Part shown: positions 3 to 6,269 of the stretch, one piece after another
Layout of the letters: each line of letters starts with the position of its first letter
How positions within the stretch are numbered: the first letter of the stretch is position 1
DNA from: Promethearchaeota archaeon
Lineage (GTDB): Archaea > Asgardarchaeota > Thorarchaeia > Thorarchaeales > Thorarchaeaceae
DNA length: 6,269 nucleotides
Direction of reading: 5' to 3'
NCBI GenBank assembly: GCA_027031765.1
Contig: JALVPN010000045.1
Coordinates: forward strand, 1-6,269
Notes under the pieces: model-generated
Databases searched by the model: none
Told to the model about the DNA's origin: nothing
What the model saw: only the letters and a program-made list of their open reading frames with translations
Translations under genes and position numbers: made by a program

Positions 3-956
3 GGAGAGTCGTTGCTCGTCGTGACGGATGATGTCCGGCAGGATGTTGGCAGCGCGTTCGCCCGGGGTGCCCTCGCCCTTGGCCTGTGGACGAGGATGGT
101 AGTCCTTGAGACCAGTGAGATGGCCCGTGAGACCGTCCCGGAACACCTGTTGGAGATACTCAACTCGGCAGACCCACCTGACATCTATATCAACACCCTG
201 CGTGGGCCCGCCCAGGAGACCCCGTTCAGGATTGAAATAATCCACCTGGAAACAAGGAAGCGGCGGTCGCGGCTGGGCCACTGTCCAGGGATCACCATGG
301 ACATGTTGACAGAGGGGGCTCTGGCCCTGACACAACAGGAGCACAGGCAGATGCAGGCACAGGCTCGCGAGCTGCTGGCCGTGCTCCAGGGGGTCGAGTC
401 AGTACATGTGCAGGCCCCTACTGGCTCTGACTTCACGCTCGGCGTCAGGGGACGCACCTGGTTCACTGACACGTACGTCGACTGGAAGACCATGAAGTGG
501 ATGAACCTGCCCACGGGCGAGGTGCTTGTCGGGCCTGTCGAGACATCAATGGACGGTACGCTTGTCTGCGATGTTGCCATCAGTGGTATCGGCCCTGTCA
601 AGAGCCCTGTGACCTTGGAGGTACGTGGTGGGCGCGTGGAGAAGGTCAGGTCGGACGACAGGCATGCGGTCAGGGTGGTACAGCAGTCCCAGTCTGTGGA
701 CGCAATGGCAAGGCACGTCGGCGAGTTTGCCATCGGGCTGAACCCGAGGGCCAGAGTTGTCAGGGAGTTCCTCGAGTCCGAGAAGGTGGCCAACACGGTC
801 CACGTGGCCTTCGGGAACAACATGGACTACCCGGGCTTGGTCGCCAACAACTCAGCAAACCACCAGGACTTCCTCATAGCACGGCCGACCGTGACTGTCA
901 CTTACAGCGACGGACACACGCGGGTGGTCGTGGAAGACGGCAGGACCGTCATCTGA
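3..956 (+). CDS. M29-family (aminopeptidase T / thermophilic metalloprotease-like) aminopeptidase, 5'-truncated
   Basis: The frame is open from the window edge (3-11 reads G-E-S before the TTG at 12). GESLLVVTD resembles the usual N-terminal GExxLIVTD segment, so the true start lies upstream. Family motifs in the translation: NLPTGEVLVGP, GEFAIGLNP, ESEKVANTVHVAFGNN and SANHQDF, carrying candidate Glu/Glu/His/His/Asp metal ligands. Stop TGA at 954-956. Confidence 0.88.
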   Translation, partial: GESLLVVTDDVRQDVGSAFARGALALGLWTRMVVLETSEMARETVPEHLLEILNSADPPDIYINTLRGPAQETPFRIEIIHLETRKRRSRLGHCPGITMDMLTEGALALTQQEHRQMQAQARELLAVLQGVESVHVQAPTGSDFTLGVRGRTWFTDTYVDWKTMKWMNLPTGEVLVGPVETSMDGTLVCDVAISGIGPVKSPVTLEVRGGRVEKVRSDDRHAVRVVQQSQSVDAMARHVGEFAIGLNPRARVVREFLESEKVANTVHVAFGNNMDYPGLVANNSANHQDFLIARPTVTVTYSDGHTRVVVEDGRTVI

Positions 957-1590
957 ACCAGTCCCCAAGGTCCCTGCGCAGGGCGGCTGCGGCGACCCGG
1001 GCCACTCGTACGGGTTCCGGCACCCGACCGTGTACCGTGAACATGTCGAGCAGGGACTTCGCACGTCTCGTGGAGATGCCGACCGTGTTCACAAACACCT
1101 CGTGCCCATTGTTCAGGCGCACGGCCTGCCGCTCACCATTCCTGCGTACGGTGTCCCAGCGCGCCTCCCAGTCGTCCGGGAAGTACTCCTTGAGGTACTC
1201 CAAGATGCCCTCTGACGCATAGTATGACACACAGACGACAGGGACACCACTGACACGGGAGAGCTCGTGCAGGTCCACTATGTTGAACCATGACACCACG
1301 CTGCCACCAAGCACCCACACACGGATGTCCTCGCGGCCGAGGGCCGAGAACATCGACAGCAGCTGAGAGGTCACATCAGTGCCGCCGACCGTGGGGCGAC
1401 AGTAGCCGAGCCCATCAATCATCAGGTCGCCACGCATGACCACGCCGACTGTGTTACTGTACCGGTCGCCCTTCACGAAGCTCTCGGCGACACCGAGCAC
1501 ACGTACACCACGTTTCCACGGGGCATGGCTGTGTCTGTCGTCAGCGTGCTGCCCCGGCTCGGATGACGTGATCTCCAACAATGCCTGCAC
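949..1590 (-). CDS. DUF99 / UPF0215 family endonuclease V-like (RNase H fold) protein
   Basis: Motifs KRGVRVLGVAESF, VGVVMRGDLMIDG, TVGGTDVT, VLGGSVVSWFNIVDL, GVPVVCV and GRVPEPVRVARVAA match DUF99. The start is uncertain: GTG at 1590 gives ~25 aa of extra N-terminus, and TTG alternatives lie just downstream. Stop TGA at 949-951 overlaps the aminopeptidase 3' end. Confidence 0.85.
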   Translation of the reverse strand: MQALLEITSSEPGQHADDRHSHAPWKRGVRVLGVAESFVKGDRYSNTVGVVMRGDLMIDGLGYCRPTVGGTDVTSQLLSMFSALGREDIRVWVLGGSVVSWFNIVDLHELSRVSGVPVVCVSYYASEGILEYLKEYFPDDWEARWDTVRRNGERQAVRLNNGHEVFVNTVGISTRRAKSLLDMFTVHGRVPEPVRVARVAAAALRRDLGDWFR

Positions 1591-1772: not shown

Positions 1773-2732
1773 TCACCCCTTCTCCTCCGGTGGCCCCTCC
1801 AGCTCGTACACGGCCACCGTCTTGAAGATGTCGCGCAGCTGCTCGCAACGGTCAATGTCGGTCGCGACCATGTCGTAGGCCTCGATGCCGAGGAACCGCG
1901 ATACCACTGGTGGTGGTACTGCACCCTCGACGTCCTGAAAGTTAGCTATCGCAATGACAGAACGTGGCAGGAAACGCCTGTGTGCCATCAGCAACCTGCG
2001 TGCCTCCACCACCCCCAGTTTAGAGCTGTCCAGTACCAGTACTGCGACATCAGCGCGCCGGAGATAGGAGCGCCAGGCACGCTGATAGGGGCGCCTGCCC
2101 GGCAGGTCGTACAACATGATGAGCTTGTTCGATACGTGGAACCACTCCTCTGACGCGCTCAGGTCGTCCATAGCGACCACGCGCCAATAAGCACCCACGG
2201 GTGGTGCCTGGGCCACTCTTGTGCTCGGGACATAGTCGTTGACCACGGAGCCCCGGCTCGCCAGGCGGAACACTGAAGTCTTCCCCGTCCGCGCACCACC
2301 AAAGAGGACAATCTTCACCCGTTCAAACACGACCTCGTTTATTGAGGAGATGAGGTCTCGCCGCTCGGCCCCATCAAGTGAGGGTACCGACCCCTCTTCG
2401 AACCGCGACTGCAGTTCCGCAAGGACCATGCCGGCACGTACGCGTACTGAAGCTGGTGGCTCAAGGGCATCGCCAACGACGACGACTGCGGTCCCCCTAT
2501 CGACCGCCACGCCCACCGTGAGCTCAAGACCGGATGGCATCTCAAGCCTCATGGTAGTGAGCCGCATCATGCCGAAGTCGGGGTCAATCCCAACGACCTC
2601 CTGCTGACTGGTCCTGTGCACGAGCTGCTGGAGCTGGTGAGACTCCACAGCCAGAGGGGCATGGACTATCCTGATGACCTCGGTCGTCAGTGGTGAGAAT
2701 ACCAGTACCTGGACAATCAATGCGTCTGTCAC
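1773..2732 (-). CDS. Ras-superfamily (Arf/Rab-like) small GTPase with ~135-aa N-terminal alpha/beta extension
   Basis: G1 GGARTGKTS, G2-like DYVPST, G3 YDLPG, the following strand ADVAVLVLDSS, G4-like IANFQD and G5-like MVAT appear in the correct order. The GTG at 2732 sits inside an SD-like GAGGGGTGA, so the true start could instead be the in-frame TTG four codons later. Confidence 0.85.
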   Translation of the reverse strand: MTDALIVQVLVFSPLTTEVIRIVHAPLAVESHQLQQLVHRTSQQEVVGIDPDFGMMRLTTMRLEMPSGLELTVGVAVDRGTAVVVVGDALEPPASVRVRAGMVLAELQSRFEEGSVPSLDGAERRDLISSINEVVFERVKIVLFGGARTGKTSVFRLASRGSVVNDYVPSTRVAQAPPVGAYWRVVAMDDLSASEEWFHVSNKLIMLYDLPGRRPYQRAWRSYLRRADVAVLVLDSSKLGVVEARRLLMAHRRFLPRSVIAIANFQDVEGAVPPPVVSRFLGIEAYDMVATDIDRCEQLRDIFKTVAVYELEGPPEEKG

Positions 2733-2838: not shown

Positions 2839-4998
2839 CTACCTGAAGCCGCCGGAAACACACGCGGAGTGACATGCGGAGTGACATGCGGAGTGGCACA
2901 CGCATGCGGAATGGCACGCAGAATGACATGCGGAGTGACACGCATCGTGCGACACACACTTGGACGTGTGTTCGAGGAGGGGTGCAAACGGTGCCGAGAT
3001 TGTCTTTGCGACACCGGACACTATCTCACCGACCGTAGATGTCACTTTCCCGACGACCTTGGCGGTGGTCGCAGCAACATCACCAACTATCTCTCCGGTG
3101 GTCGAGATGGTCCGTCCGGCAGCGTCGGCAATGCCAGAGAACCATTCGGGGAGCCTGATCTCACCACCGACAGCCCCCGGTTCGGTAATCGTCCTGTCGA
3201 TGTGGTCGTGGCCCCTGTGCAGGTACAGCCAGTACCATGCCCAGTCGTCACCGTACGTGCCGTCAAGGTAGTACTGTGTGCGTCCATCAATGGTGGGCCT
3301 GCCCTGTAGCTCGTCCCACGCACCATCAATACGCTCCCTGTGCCGGTCCATCGTTGCCTCGAAGTCAGCGTCCCATACCTTCCCCTGTACCCGTTCTGCC
3401 AGGGCATCTAGCATCTCGTCGACCCGTCCAGGGTCCAGCTGGTCGTCAACGATTGCGTTGACAAACATCTCCTCGTAGTACGTTAGGTCTTCGAACCTCA
3501 GACCGGTCACAGACAGGCGCAGTGGGTCTGTCGACAGTACACGCACGGCACCCTTCCTGACACATGACATCAGTATCATTGAGACAATCTTCTGGCGGGT
3601 CTCGTTGGCGAACAGTGCAGACTCTACTGGGTCGAGGTCGGCAGCCTCACCAGGCTGACCAAAGGTCTCGACTGTGATCTCAGGACTGATGTACACCGAC
3701 GTTGTGTCCTCGCTGGTCCAGTCTGCACCATACCGGCGGCGCACGAGCCTGTACCATGAGACGACAACCCCCAACAGCATCAGCGAGAGGCCACCGAAGA
3801 AGATGGCCCTGAACAACGGCGTGTCCACTGGTGACGGTGGCGCCTCTGAGATATAGACCGATACTGTGAACCTGAGCCAGTCCGTCATGTTCACGTCCGA
3901 CGCGGACACTGTGAACTCAATGTCCAGCACCTGTCCTGCGTCGCTTGCGAGGAGCTGGTACGTAAGGGTGGTCTGTCCGCCATCGGGGAGCGTGCCAATA
4001 TCGGTGACCGTCTCGCCAGAAACGAGGGTCAGGTTCGCCGGCAGCGCCATGTTCACCACAACGTCGTGTAGTGCAGAGTCACCGTCATTGTACACAGAGA
4101 GGAGCAGCCCGAACTCCTGCTGAGCGTATGCGTTCACCGTCCGCTGCACGTCATAGCCCAGATGGCCGGGCCGTACGAACGGCGCATAGAAGGCCCAGTC
4201 AGTGTACTGGAACACCAGGAACTGGAACTCTGTGTCGACCGGGGAGTGTTGCATGACCACGCTGAAGTACCTCGTGGTGGCCGAGGCATCGTGAGGATAT
4301 GCCAGCAGCTCCACGCTGTCGAACGGTGTGTGGGACGATGTGTCCAGATCCCAGACCCCCTGACGTGAGTCTGTGATGTAGTGCGCGTGGTCTGCGCCAG
4401 CAGGGAGGACACCACCCTCTGGAGTGATCCACGACGAGTTCAGTTCAATCGGGTACACCACCGTGACCCTCTCGAACTCAACTGGCACCGACCACCGCAC
4501 AGGGGCCCAGTGGAGGACACCGAGGTCACCGGCAGTGTCGTCGTAAGTATGTTCTATGACGCGGGAGGTGCTATAGTACCCGAACACGACGGTACCGGTC
4601 TCGCCGGCCTCAATCCTACGGGTCCAGTCGAGCTTGTAGCCGTCCGCGGTCACTGTCACCATCAGGTCCTCGCGCTCGCCGTCGACCTCCACATACGCCC
4701 GTCCCGTGTCGTACACCGTTGACTCCTCTATGCCGAAGAGGTCGAAGCCCCCGACTGACCCGGTCTGCACACTGATGGCTATCCAGTAGGTGACGTTTAC
4801 GCGTCCGTTCGGCAGGACGACGAGCAGCACTTCGATGCTGTCAAGGGTGAGTTCCAGGTCCTGACTGGGCTCTGCACACACTGCTGACAGCACGTGGGGT
4901 GATGCCTGTGTCGGGGCCGTTTGGAGGGACAGACACAACACTGTGGTCAGTACGAGCAACACAAGGACCGTGTACACTCCAGTCTGACGACGCCCCAT
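2839..4998 (-). CDS. ~719-aa type I membrane protein (signal peptide, DUF2207-like N-domain, Ig-like CARDB/DUF11-type domain, single TM helix, cytoplasmic domain) ending in a Cys/His-rich CHSA-repeat tail; candidate radical-SAM substrate
   Basis: The ORF track gives 2839..5103. ATG 4998 is preferred because SD GGGGGTGA lies 5 nt upstream and it begins a signal peptide (MGRRQTGVYTVLVLLVLTTVLCLSLQTAPTQA|S). LDSIEVLLVVLPNGRVNVTYWI resembles DUF2207 N-termini. FGLLLSVYNDGDSALHDVVVNMALPANLTLVSG...IGTLPDGGQTTLTY (~3850-4140) is Ig-like. The TM helix LFRAIFFGGLSLMLLGVVVSWY (~3751-3816) is followed by RLVRRR (positive-inside). LDPVESALF...IVSMILMSCVRKGAVRV resembles DUF2207 C-terminal regions. The CDS is firm; the domain names come from pattern recognition, not a search. 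Confidence 0.85.
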   Translation of the reverse strand: MGRRQTGVYTVLVLLVLTTVLCLSLQTAPTQASPHVLSAVCAEPSQDLELTLDSIEVLLVVLPNGRVNVTYWIAISVQTGSVGGFDLFGIEESTVYDTGRAYVEVDGEREDLMVTVTADGYKLDWTRRIEAGETGTVVFGYYSTSRVIEHTYDDTAGDLGVLHWAPVRWSVPVEFERVTVVYPIELNSSWITPEGGVLPAGADHAHYITDSRQGVWDLDTSSHTPFDSVELLAYPHDASATTRYFSVVMQHSPVDTEFQFLVFQYTDWAFYAPFVRPGHLGYDVQRTVNAYAQQEFGLLLSVYNDGDSALHDVVVNMALPANLTLVSGETVTDIGTLPDGGQTTLTYQLLASDAGQVLDIEFTVSASDVNMTDWLRFTVSVYISEAPPSPVDTPLFRAIFFGGLSLMLLGVVVSWYRLVRRRYGADWTSEDTTSVYISPEITVETFGQPGEAADLDPVESALFANETRQKIVSMILMSCVRKGAVRVLSTDPLRLSVTGLRFEDLTYYEEMFVNAIVDDQLDPGRVDEMLDALAERVQGKVWDADFEATMDRHRERIDGAWDELQGRPTIDGRTQYYLDGTYGDDWAWYWLYLHRGHDHIDRTITEPGAVGGEIRLPEWFSGIADAAGRTISTTGEIVGDVAATTAKVVGKVTSTVGEIVSGVAKTISAPFAPLLEHTSKCVSHDACHSACHSACHSACVCHSACHSACHSACVSGGFR
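2857..2940 (-). repeat. Coding tandem repeat: six 12-nt units encoding CHSA, arranged as two 42-nt blocks of (CHSA)3-CV
   Basis: Units read on the minus strand: tgtcactccgca (2929-2940), tgtcattctgcg (2917-2928), tgccattccgca (2905-2916), tgccactccgca (2887-2898), tgtcactccgca (2875-2886) and tgtcactccgcg (2863-2874). All differences fall at third codon positions. Confidence 0.95.
3007..3105 (-). repeat. Three degenerate 11-residue repeats (STTGEIVGDVA / ATTAKVVGKVT / STVGEIVSGVA) within the membrane protein
   Basis: Aligned by eye from the translation. GEIV recurs exactly 22 aa apart. A weaker fourth copy (SGIADAAGRTI) lies at 3106-3138. Confidence 0.7.
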
Positions 4999-5011
4999 CC
5001 TGCTCACCCCC
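4999..5011 (-). promoter_or_regulatory. Archaeal-type Shine-Dalgarno site (GGGGGTGA) for the membrane protein
   Basis: tcaccccc at 5004-5011 reads GGGGGTGA on the minus strand, with a 5-nt spacer to ATG 4998. It resembles the archaeal GGAGGTGA consensus. Confidence 0.65.
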
Positions 5012-5111
5012 AGCAGGTGTCCGGCCACTGTAGACGGTCGCCGGGAGGTGGCCGTAGGCACGCGACACGGGAAGTGCACACAGTGGTCACCCCTCTCATT
5101 CATGGGGCCAG

Positions 5112-5510
5112 TCAGTCGCCCCGCCGGGCACGGATTACCTCGGCCTGTGCAATGGTGAGGTTTGACAGGTCGGCCTTGGCAGCAGCCCAGGTCTCGAGGT
5201 CTGGAAAGTTCTGGACCATCCCGCTCCAGACAAGGTGGTACGCCCGCTTGAGGACAGTTCCCACATCCCCGCCCGTACCAACATACTCAAAGAAGCACTT
5301 GACAACGGCAGGCCTCTGTGCTGACATGTCCTCCGGCACCTCGGTCCCGAAGCCCGCAAAGGCCACGTCGAGTTCACGCAGGACATCTATCCGTTCGCGG
5401 ATCCCCGCTGCTATCACAGGGAGGTCGATGTCAAAGGCTGAGAACGTCATCACAAGCTTCCTGCCGCTGATCACACCGTAGGGCAGCCGTGTCTCGCCAG
5501 CACTCATCAC
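5112..5510 (-). CDS. Hypothetical protein, ~131-132 aa, no recognised family
   Basis: Clean ORF with globular-protein composition. GAGGAG lies upstream (ttgaggagagaaa-GTG-ATG), and the start is GTG 5510 or ATG 5507. It is co-oriented with the membrane protein. Confidence 0.75.
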   Translation of the reverse strand: MMSAGETRLPYGVISGRKLVMTFSAFDIDLPVIAAGIRERIDVLRELDVAFAGFGTEVPEDMSAQRPAVVKCFFEYVGTGGDVGTVLKRAYHLVWSGMVQNFPDLETWAAAKADLSNLTIAQAEVIRARRGD

Positions 5511-5554
5511 TTTCTCTCCTCAAGTAAGCTACACCGGTTGTTGTACGCATGGAC

Positions 5555-5567
5555 AGATAAGGCTTTC
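5555..5567 (-). promoter_or_regulatory. Possible BRE/TATA-like promoter for the leftward gene run
   Basis: The minus strand reads GAAAG-CCTTATCT about 45 nt upstream of the 5510 start. This is a weak match to archaeal BRE plus TATA in the divergent intergenic region. Confidence 0.35.
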
Positions 5568-5595
5568 ATGTCGACCTGAGTACCAGGTCATGTCA

Positions 5596-5615
5596 CCCCA
5601 GTAGCTCTACTGGGG
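5596..5615. promoter_or_regulatory. Perfect inverted repeat CCCCAGTAG-ct-CTACTGGGG in the divergent intergenic region (possible operator)
   Basis: 9-bp arms at 5596-5604 and 5607-5615 with a 2-nt spacer. The repeat is directly visible; its function is inferred. Confidence 0.45.
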
Positions 5616-5660
5616 GCACGGCACAAGACCTATGACGGGACGTTGCAACGGGGTCACAAG

Positions 5661-6269
5661 ATGCACGACAGCTCGTATGACTATACTGTTGACGACCTGA
5701 GCTGGGTGCCGCGGTTCATGAGTGAGGTCAGGGACTACTTCTTTGCCAGAGAGGAGGACAACCTGCTCATCCTGCGGCCGAACCGTGTCATGCACCTCAA
5801 CGAGACTGCCACGCTGATGCTGAGGATGCTACTCGATGGTGCGTCCCCGGAAGAGGTCGTGCAGCACTTCGTTGAGCAGCGTGGTGCAGACAGGCAGCGT
5901 GTGGTCAACGACCTCATGGCCTTCGTGAGCGACCTGCGTGACATGACCTGTGGTGTGACCAACATATACGCGCTCAGGACCGCCCGGACTGCACCCTTCG
6001 GCTCCCAAGAGGTGAGGTACCCGGTGCTGAGCGAGATAGCAGTGACATACCGTTGCAACAACAGGTGCCTGTTCTGTTATGCGTACTCGCCCTACCGGGA
6101 GAGCGGTGAGATGACAACCGAGCAGGTGAAGCGCGTCATCGATATCATTGCGGACGACGCCCACGTACCGAGCCTCTCCTTCACCGGTGGCGAGCCCACA
6201 CTGCGGGACGACCTCCCCGAACTCATCCGCCACGCACGCACAAAGGGCCTGAGGCCCTTTGTGCGTGCG
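5661..6269 (+). CDS. PqqD/RRE-domain radical SAM protein (probable peptide/protein maturase), 3'-truncated; absent from the supplied ORF track
   Basis: Manual translation from ATG 5661 (GGGGT 6 nt upstream) stays open to the window end for 203 codons: MHDSSYDYTVDDLSWVPRFMSEVRDYFFAREEDNLLILRPNRVMHLNETATLMLRMLLDGASPEEVVQHFVEQRGADRQRVVNDLMAFVSDLRDM...PVLSEIAVTYRCNNRCLFCYAYSPYRESGEMTTEQVKRVIDIIADDAHVPSLSFTGGEPTLRDDLPELIRHARTKGL. The PqqD-like LNETA...LDG..EEV motif lies at ~5736-5945, CxxxCxxC (CNNRCLFC) at 6054-6077 and GGEP at 6186-6197. Confidence 0.93.
   Translation, partial: MHDSSYDYTVDDLSWVPRFMSEVRDYFFAREEDNLLILRPNRVMHLNETATLMLRMLLDGASPEEVVQHFVEQRGADRQRVVNDLMAFVSDLRDMTCGVTNIYALRTARTAPFGSQEVRYPVLSEIAVTYRCNNRCLFCYAYSPYRESGEMTTEQVKRVIDIIADDAHVPSLSFTGGEPTLRDDLPELIRHARTKGLRPFVRA
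6233..6269. other. Perfect 18-bp fold-back palindrome at the sequence end, probable assembly or library artefact
   Basis: cgcacgcacaaagggcct (6233-6250), then g, then aggccctttgtgcgtgcg (6252-6269). The right arm is the exact reverse complement of the left and ends at the last base of the window. Confidence 0.8.

Follow-up and report, generated by a model that had tools for sequence, protein, structure and literature searches.

A radical SAM/SPASM enzyme paired with a membrane protein that ends in a conserved Cys-repeat tail: a candidate two-gene protein modification module of Asgard archaea and Bacteria

The combination of a RiPP (peptide made by the ribosome and modified after translation) recognition element (RRE) with a radical S-adenosylmethionine (SAM) enzyme is known mainly for small peptide natural products and cofactors. 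Why, then, should such machinery apparently be reserved for the C-terminus of a large membrane protein? The question is raised by contig JALVPN010000045.1 (C45) of the Promethearchaeota archaeon assembly GCA_027031765.1 (Thorarchaeaceae), a metagenome-assembled genome (MAG) of 2.95 Mb and 95% completeness. The entire 6,269-bp contig was analysed and is referred to as the window. A gene for a PqqD(RRE)-radical SAM/SPASM enzyme starts near its right end and diverges from a gene for a membrane protein, hereafter the carrier, with the C-terminal tail CVSHDA(CHSA)3CV(CHSA)3CVSGGFR. A preliminary description of the window had already named the open reading frames (ORFs), the divergent enzyme gene, the carrier of ~719 amino acids (aa) and the nine Cys and seven His in 39 tail residues, and all of this was borne out by ORFs, translations and Pfam matches. 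The carrier-enzyme pair is found again in other Archaea and in many phyla of Bacteria, and its most probable meaning is a hitherto undescribed modification at the tail of a whole protein.

The carrier tail and its enzyme partner

Conservation of the tail (2842..2958, minus strand), the proposed modification site, is far beyond chance. Across 42 distinct orthologues it is invariant at 35 of 39 positions with a third-codon-position identity of 0.44, and its Ser codons alternate between AGY and TCN. Residues that stay fixed over third positions only 44% identical and over switching Ser codons point to extreme purifying selection on the peptide and not on the DNA. Orthologues of the same archaeal family share ~50% identity in the carrier body and 93-98% in the tail, with synonymous sites saturated, and between Bacteria and Archaea the body drops to 27-40% with tail residues invariant. 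The tail also stands out by composition, as the remaining 680 residues of the carrier hold merely three Cys and 15 His, and Tandem Repeats Finder detected a 12-nt period at 2860-2940. In its CH pairs Cys always precedes His, and an overlapping CX3CH spacing can be read from the sequence. Compared with 41 orthologues, the window tail is short of one CVSHDACHSA unit (window 2929-2958); since independent Logan contigs of the source run are interrupted within the repeats, at 2941-2949, the shorter form is possibly an assembly collapse and the repeat number is uncertain.

The partner enzyme is represented in the window by the 5' part of its gene (~197 codons, 5661..6250, plus strand, ATG at 5661), as delimited by Pfam matches and contig overlap. 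The rest of the gene, including the SPASM domain envisaged in the preliminary description, was recovered on contig C170 of the same assembly, which overlaps window positions 6125-6254 and continues the reading frame; independently of this overlap, the join is spanned by a Logan contig of the source run. The joined enzyme (window plus C170, L004:2-958) has 473 aa. Its PqqD-like RRE domain lies at 5769..5942 (plus strand; PF05402, E 1.2e-9, residues 43-100 of the TTG-started frame), a region also matched by the lasso PqqD chaperone model NF033530 (E 9.2e-11). Radical_SAM (PF04055) matches at E 1.2e-14, and the CX3CX2C cluster motif, CNNRCLFC, is directly readable at 6054..6077 (plus strand). The C170 continuation contains the full SPASM pattern, C-x14-C with GX4C and then CX2CX5CX3C. 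Among 59 homologues the three CX3CX2C Cys are invariant and the seven SPASM Cys, as expected for two auxiliary clusters, are invariant or nearly so, and full-length orthologues match PqqD, Radical_SAM and SPASM (PF13186) in Pfam. The closest solved relatives by profile are the thioether-forming SkfB (E 1.2e-36) and PqqE (1.3e-30), with further matches to BlsE, Tes, an unnamed radical SAM protein (8vpo), SuiB, CteB, MoaA and anSME. Archaeal and bacterial enzymes alike remained below the cut-offs of all NCBIfam equivalogs listed among their matches (AhbD, NirJ2, PqqE, MftC, HxsB/C, PapB, StsB, AlbA and others), the best score being 151 bits for AhbD against a cut-off of 500.

Pairing over long evolutionary distances is the decisive evidence that carrier and enzyme are coupled. 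A tail-first scan for (CHxA)3C in 185,579 species genomes gave at least 120 stretches, 80 of which were examined as 8-kb loci. A filter kept 63 of them as true C-terminal tails, including one doubtful case (L118), and dropped 17, most of which are off-frame GC-rich chance matches, while two of them (L108 and L135) look real. True tails occur in Chloroflexota, Spirochaetota, Planctomycetota, Myxococcota, Acidobacteriota, Gemmatimonadota, Omnitrophota, Kiritimatiellia and Gammaproteobacteria, among others, and in the cultured Desulfobulbus alkaliphilus DSM 24258 (L172). The His-containing form, initially regarded as an archaeal variant, is thus widespread in Bacteria and not specific to Archaea. 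A radical SAM homologue of 40-51% identity was present within the locus for 52 of the 63 listed tails, in 51 of them immediately downstream on the same strand and typically a few tens of nt past the stop codon; most of the 11 loci lacking the enzyme are cut by the locus limits.

Asgard archaea outside the window's family show the same association. There, (CH[SNAG]A)n tails terminate proteins of 441-926 aa that neighbour radical SAM enzymes of 42-47% identity, in varying gene orders that include one overlapping operon with the enzyme gene first. In more distant families, the carriers have 500-640 aa and end in GGCACACACAGCACACAGGGR, and the gene directly after them encodes an enzyme of 32-35% identity. 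A sister tail type ending in CACACAGCACACAGGGR is paired likewise in Asgard families, Deltaproteobacteria and Zixibacteria. Relatives ending in CACAC...GGGR, which the preliminary description had mentioned, do exist in these three groups, each beside a PqqD-radical SAM-SPASM gene that in the two bacterial groups comes next after the carrier. Enzyme-first sampling in the Asgard phylum found a CACAC-tail carrier adjoining 8/8 (family f5), 2/2 (f18) and 1/1 (f9) enzymes. Whether homologues of the enzyme occur together with membrane proteins bearing a Cys tail had been set as a test beforehand, and these 11 of 11 enzymes from three Asgard families, together with the 51 of 63 listed tails, agree with such co-occurrence. 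Two further families, f12 and f27, retain both genes without linkage. Pairwise identities of carriers and enzymes correlate with r 0.91 overall and 0.81 for 30 bacterial pairs, which 0 of 2000 permutations reached. As a side observation, one locus of family f12 (L237, G135:C52) has a second carrier-like gene (1654-2040) right after a CACAC-tail carrier, i.e. tandem paralogues, with the radical SAM homologue on another contig or 40 kb off.

Within the archaeal family, the carrier and a small gene upstream of it (p132) face away from the enzyme gene in 16 loci with enough flank, and in one further locus (L041) the enzyme is located ~5.6 kb upstream. A census of 85 family genomes, which does not count the window's own genome where both genes are present, found both genes in 54, neither in 19 and a discordant pattern in 12; carrier orthologues were found in 58. 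Seven of nine re-examined discordant genomes are explained by contig ends, gaps or incomplete genes, leaving G366 (71% complete), which has no enzyme orthologue, and G383, which has no carrier match. Three other discordant genomes (G380, G381 and G388) gave a partial enzyme match only. The pair is patchy inside genera, e.g. present in one of seven genomes of genus g8. This co-occurrence within the family is consistent with coupling and not decisive, because kin are non-independent and neighbouring genes are lost together. Both genes are damaged in genome G008 (L043, G008:C14; 5771-6469 and 7959-9942), where the enzyme ends after ~residue 240 with a stop directly followed by the next gene, and the carrier lacks the transmembrane segment although its tail is perfectly preserved; the two genes seem to have decayed together, unless the MAG is misassembled here.

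The carrier itself is predicted to be a single-pass, type I-like membrane protein with a cytoplasmic tail. Its ORF (2839-5103, minus strand) encodes 754 aa from the first ATG, and M36 is the likely start because orthologue N-termini align from there, giving a gene at 2839..4998 and a product of 719 aa. Kyte-Doolittle hydropathy (19-residue window) identified two hydrophobic segments. The first, at residues 42-60 (score 2.39) after MGRRQ, lies in an N-terminal stretch (residues 36-67; 4903..4998) that is a putative signal peptide or anchor, and the second is a transmembrane helix (residues 430-452; 3748..3816; score 2.19) followed by RLVRRRYG, with RRR directly on its C-terminal side. Between them, a DUF11-like immunoglobulin-type domain, presumably extracytoplasmic (residues 326-402; 3898..4128; PF01345, E 2.2e-5), is the sole Pfam match of the carrier and borderline at 25.2 bits against a cut-off of 24.6. 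A juxtamembrane cytoplasmic domain (residues ~485-645; 3169..3651) was modelled by AlphaFold2 as a winged helix plus helical bundle with a predicted local distance difference test (pLDDT) >90 across ~160 residues; the tail appears as low-confidence helices (pLDDT ~50). All of these features lie on the minus strand.

The label "DUF2207-like" used in the preliminary description is backed tentatively by the fold and not by family models. Two aligners placed GOLPH3 and Vps74 as top structural matches of the cytoplasmic domain (VIA Z 6.1 with 155 aligned residues and a root-mean-square deviation of 4.4, and Z 5.6, respectively; next row 4.2). Foldseek gave E 0.085-0.2 for GPP34/GOLPH3, and Atlas TM-scores were 0.57-0.65 with clusters labelled DUF2207 or DUF2207_C and 0.37/0.51 with a GPP34 cluster. 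The modelled domain may resemble GOLPH3/GPP34 and DUF2207_C, with Z 5.6-6.1 under the safe level for a fold match, and supports the likeness to DUF2207 by fold only. The Pfam hidden Markov models of DUF2207 (PF09972/PF20990) matched none of five carriers at E up to 1 nor the window carrier at E up to 0.01, and no model in Pfam or NCBIfam names the carrier family. In an alignment of bacterial and archaeal carriers, the juxtamembrane domain is conserved, the linker varies and the tail is invariant. When 1.84 billion proteins were compared with a profile of the cytoplasmic region, 559 cluster representatives were retrieved at E <= 1e-3, of which 312 reached E <= 1e-10. The best 150 comprise 37 with CHxA repeats at the C-terminus, 30 with CACA repeats, five with other Cys repeats and 78 without a Cys repeat; as many of the latter are evidently fragments, members readable to the end mostly possess Cys-repeat tails. 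The first two database homologues both end before the tail. In one of these two, P0006 on a European Nucleotide Archive metagenome contig (L005 2495-2544), a terminal Nextera adapter (CTGTCTCTTATACACATCT...) creates a false stop that hides the tail.

Possible fates of the tail

Judging from gene context and conservation, the tail is very likely the substrate of the enzyme. We also favour, with somewhat less confidence, a two-gene module in which the radical SAM/SPASM enzyme would modify the cytoplasmic Cys-repeat tail and the product would stay on the protein. The carrier would expose its tail in the cytoplasm, the RRE would dock on the C-terminal region, and the 5'-deoxyadenosyl radical would abstract hydrogen from tail residues, supported in a Cys-centred chemistry by the two auxiliary SPASM clusters. 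A focus on Cys is suggested because it is, besides Ala, the only residue common to both tail types. The outcome might be a ladder of intramolecular thioether links (sactionine- or ranthionine-type) from the repeated Cys to carbons of nearby Ser, Asp, Ala or His. Thioethers are preferred because SkfB and CteB are among the nearest relatives and by analogy with PapB and freyrasin, and this part of the proposal is tentative. Modification would take place in cis at the membrane after translation, and the modified tail might be kept as a functional module, e.g. a rigid cross-linked, metal- or redox-active end. A retained product is more probable than a released natural product since the tail is invariant rather than diversifying, and invariant His, Ser and Ala residues speak for a final structure that is fixed, such as a cofactor-like or metal-binding site, instead of a diversifying antibiotic. 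A bolder and rather doubtful extension is that the tail becomes a prosthetic group of a new kind, derived from protein and tethered to the membrane, which Asgard archaea would share with a dozen phyla of Bacteria; one possibility would be a thioether-laddered metal-binding or electron-transfer module at the cytoplasmic end of a DUF2207/GOLPH3-like protein. If true, this would define a function for an orphan carrier family.

Several points weigh against a retained modification of the tail. Its assignment as substrate comes from gene context and conservation alone, and its cytoplasmic placement is predicted from hydropathy and charge only. With the enzyme below every NCBIfam cut-off, the reaction type is unreadable from family membership. 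In the bacterial locus L152 the carrier is followed by a third gene, with no radical SAM gene in 4.6 kb downstream, and the carrier is not adjacent to 7/7 (f12) and 2/2 (f27) sampled radical SAM homologues, where CACAC-tail carriers were found elsewhere in 2/5 and 3/4 genomes, respectively (co-occurrence without adjacency). Both co-loss and the mirror-tree correlation overstate functional coupling because adjacent genes are inherited and lost together. Moreover, RiPP cores usually vary and this tail is invariant, a pattern that a metal-binding motif fits equally well, and the CH pairs with CX3CH spacing could bind metal or heme unmodified. A complex prediction of the full enzyme (three 4Fe-4S clusters plus SAM) with the last 100 carrier residues scored 0.00; it was run without controls and carries no weight either way.

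A first alternative, an unlikely one, would have the tail serve without modification as a metal-, Fe-S- or heme-type binding or redox motif of Cys/His ligands, with the functionally linked enzyme acting elsewhere or using the tail as a cluster or sulfur donor or as a docking site. Cys-His pairs, the overlapping CX3CH spacing and an invariance of all residues across phyla, as is typical of ligand spheres, would suit such a site. In the helix that AlphaFold models for the tail (pLDDT ~50), a period of four residues would also align the Cys along a single face. What speaks for modification instead is that sister CACAC...GGGR tails without His retain the same enzyme partner, that this partner bears an RRE, a peptide-binding domain, and that its nearest solved relatives (SkfB, PqqE, SuiB and CteB) modify peptides. 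Heme binding of the CX3CH type was set aside in view of the predicted cytoplasmic location and the sister tails devoid of His.

Alternatively, the carrier might be a giant membrane-anchored precursor whose modified tail is cut off to yield a free small cofactor or peptide, comparable to pyrroloquinoline quinone from PqqA and mycofactocin from MftA. We regard this as improbable to a similar degree. The invariant C-terminal core does recall cofactor precursors, PqqE and MftC are among the NCBIfam matches below cut-off, and peptidases are at hand in some lineages, with an M29 aminopeptidase near many loci of the archaeal family and an M48 peptidase upstream in Desulfobulbus. Yet ORF clustering on the 64 tail loci retained after 16 of the 80 had been set aside as spurious revealed no protease, exporter or further tailoring enzyme conserved across lineages, and the ectodomain-transmembrane-cytoplasmic architecture kept from Bacteria to Archaea would be costly for a mere leader.

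Far less probable is a membrane-based defence or envelope-surveillance system with an effector matured by the radical SAM enzyme. The HXS system offers a precedent for a short-repeat protein effector matured in this way (PMC13128918), and the patchy distribution within genera would be in line with defence. However, PADLOC has no match to the carrier or p132 and recognizes the enzyme only as a generic viperin radical SAM core, the pair is situated in conserved core synteny and not in a defence island, and the parts of HXS (two radical SAM enzymes, HxsD and HxS repeats) are absent. Inherited synteny without a functional link, which the likewise kept order of M29, p235 and p144 within the family might suggest, is hardly credible given a pairing that holds at 32-50% enzyme identity, across domains, in three gene orders and with other neighbours changing.

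Neighbouring genes and the contig

Carrier and enzyme were the sole universal genes in the clustering of the 64 loci. A separate small precursor, of which the preliminary description had seen no convincing candidate, was not found at the locus, intergenic ORFs included. The accessory gene p132 (5112..5507, minus strand, 131 aa), identified as an ORF conserved in the family, is 65-77% identical across same-family loci and confined to the archaeal family. It had no match in Pfam, NCBIfam, PADLOC, Atlas features or Foldseek at E <= 0.001, and its alpha/beta model (pLDDT 74.5) gave no clear structural match. Between p132 and the enzyme gene lies a divergent intergenic region (5511..5660) without an ORF of note.

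Other neighbours are specific to lineages. Membrane proteins of 132-134 aa with a C-terminal zinc ribbon are encoded upstream of bacterial CACAC-type carriers (L213 5305-5703, L214 5569-5973); p132 was compared with them and is unrelated. The archaeal p235 (L004 2253-2960, minus strand), another membrane protein near the pair with a C-terminal zinc ribbon, aligns with these bacterial proteins in the zinc-ribbon motif alone. A membrane protein of ~300 aa and no known family is encoded directly downstream of the enzyme in ~30 of the 64 retained loci (e.g. L148 3880-4818, minus strand, and L160 3853-4749, plus strand), and a zinc-ribbon protein of ~400 aa occurs near the pair in nine. The ~300-aa protein is also the third gene of L152, where it comes straight after the carrier. 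These recurrent third genes have no detectable kinship to one another or to p235 beyond the zinc-ribbon motif. In 12 of 17 same-family loci, the enzyme gene is immediately followed by a pyridoxal phosphate enzyme with Ala_racemase_N and D-Ser-dehydratase-like domains (L004/C170 1096-2238, plus strand), a gene that is not beside the pair in Bacteria; it could reflect plain synteny or a lineage-specific tailoring of the Ser-rich tail. The wider synteny of M29, p235 and p144 is kept within the archaeal family as well.

The left part of the window, annotated from ORFs and domain matches, comprises an M29 peptidase fragment (3-956, plus strand), an endonuclease dU gene (949-1590, minus strand) and a gene for an Arf/Roc-like GTPase (1773-2732, minus strand). 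The GTPase gene product (319 aa) combines a C-terminal Arf/Roc-type small GTPase domain with an N-terminal extension of ~130 aa without known family; it resembles the eukaryote-like GTPases of Asgard archaea, and its synteny is kept in some relatives (L032, L039 and L041). At the opposite end, 6251..6269 is an assembly artefact, a contig-end hairpin copy of the bases just before it: 6233-6269 is self-complementary, and the last ~15-19 nt (6251/6255-6269) diverge from C170 and the Logan contig after ~6250-6254. A hydrothermal vent metagenome, the probable source, is the sole public run with the window sequence, present there as contigs, and no RNA dataset is listed as holding the stretch. Named relatives of the genome are "Candidatus Thorarchaeota" or "Promethearchaeota" MAGs.

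Comparison with known systems

By its sequence, the enzyme has the class features of RRE-dependent radical SAM/SPASM modifiers, i.e. CX3CX2C motif, SPASM domain, RRE and a co-occurring candidate substrate gene. The sactipeptide and ranthipeptide maturases of the SkfB/SkfA, CteB/SCIFF and PapB/freyrasin pairs likewise join an N-terminal RRE to a radical SAM core with auxiliary clusters, and their substrates are Cys-rich, often in short Cys-spaced repeats as in the carrier tail. Freyrasin, the product of PapB, contains six CX3D units, and CVSHD in the archaeal tail is also a CX3D. Nevertheless, the candidate substrate here is the tail of a membrane protein of 500-950 aa instead of a leader-core peptide of 30-60 aa, its core is invariant rather than variable, a leader peptidase or exporter is not conserved, and the enzyme falls far under the NCBIfam cut-offs of PapB, StsB and AlbA. 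Membership in the sactipeptides or ranthipeptides thus fails for want of a short precursor and a conserved peptidase or exporter. The CXXX-repeat peptide/radical SAM maturase system of NCBIfam/TIGRFAMs also features a Cys at each fourth residue beside a radical SAM/SPASM enzyme, with a short peptide as target; its model is not among the 25 best NCBIfam matches of the enzyme, and none matches the carrier.

The carrier shares its layout (signal peptide, ectodomain, transmembrane helix, cytoplasmic helical domain and low-complexity C-terminal end) with DUF2207 proteins. The tails of ordinary DUF2207 proteins are rich in Gly and are not known to bear Cys repeats or to have a radical SAM partner. 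Our literature searches, which spanned DUF2207 with radical SAM, SPASM with membrane-protein tails, Asgard RiPPs, the tail strings and CXXX repeats, found nothing on this system.

Radical SAM modification at the level of whole proteins has precedents in QhpD/QhpC, anSME and HxsA. QhpD, a radical SAM/SPASM enzyme, cross-links the gamma subunit QhpC of quinohemoprotein amine dehydrogenase by thioethers, and the modification is retained for function. Like the enzyme proposed here, QhpD and anSME (which acts on sulfatases) are radical SAM/SPASM enzymes acting on Cys of a whole protein; they differ in substrate, motif and architecture, since there is no dehydrogenase or sulfatase context around our pair and the target would be the repeat tail of a membrane protein. 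The HXS antiphage system consists of HxsA with His-Xaa-Ser repeats, the two radical SAM enzymes HxsB and HxsC, and HxsD; in it, a complete effector protein bearing short repeats undergoes radical SAM maturation (PMC13128918). This effector resides in the periplasm and has a peptidoglycan-binding domain, in contrast to the single radical SAM enzyme, Cys repeat and predicted cytoplasmic tail of our system; HxsB, HxsC and HxsC4 models score the enzyme at 33-108 bits against cut-offs of 268-500, and HxS repeats are absent. A tail kept nearly letter-perfect across Bacteria and Archaea suggests that its chemical product is precise and matters to the cell. The proposed modification is directly testable, with a cultured host (D. 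alkaliphilus DSM 24258) available and a small soluble cytoplasmic fragment, and solving the modification would give the carriers a function and extend RiPP-like chemistry to whole proteins.

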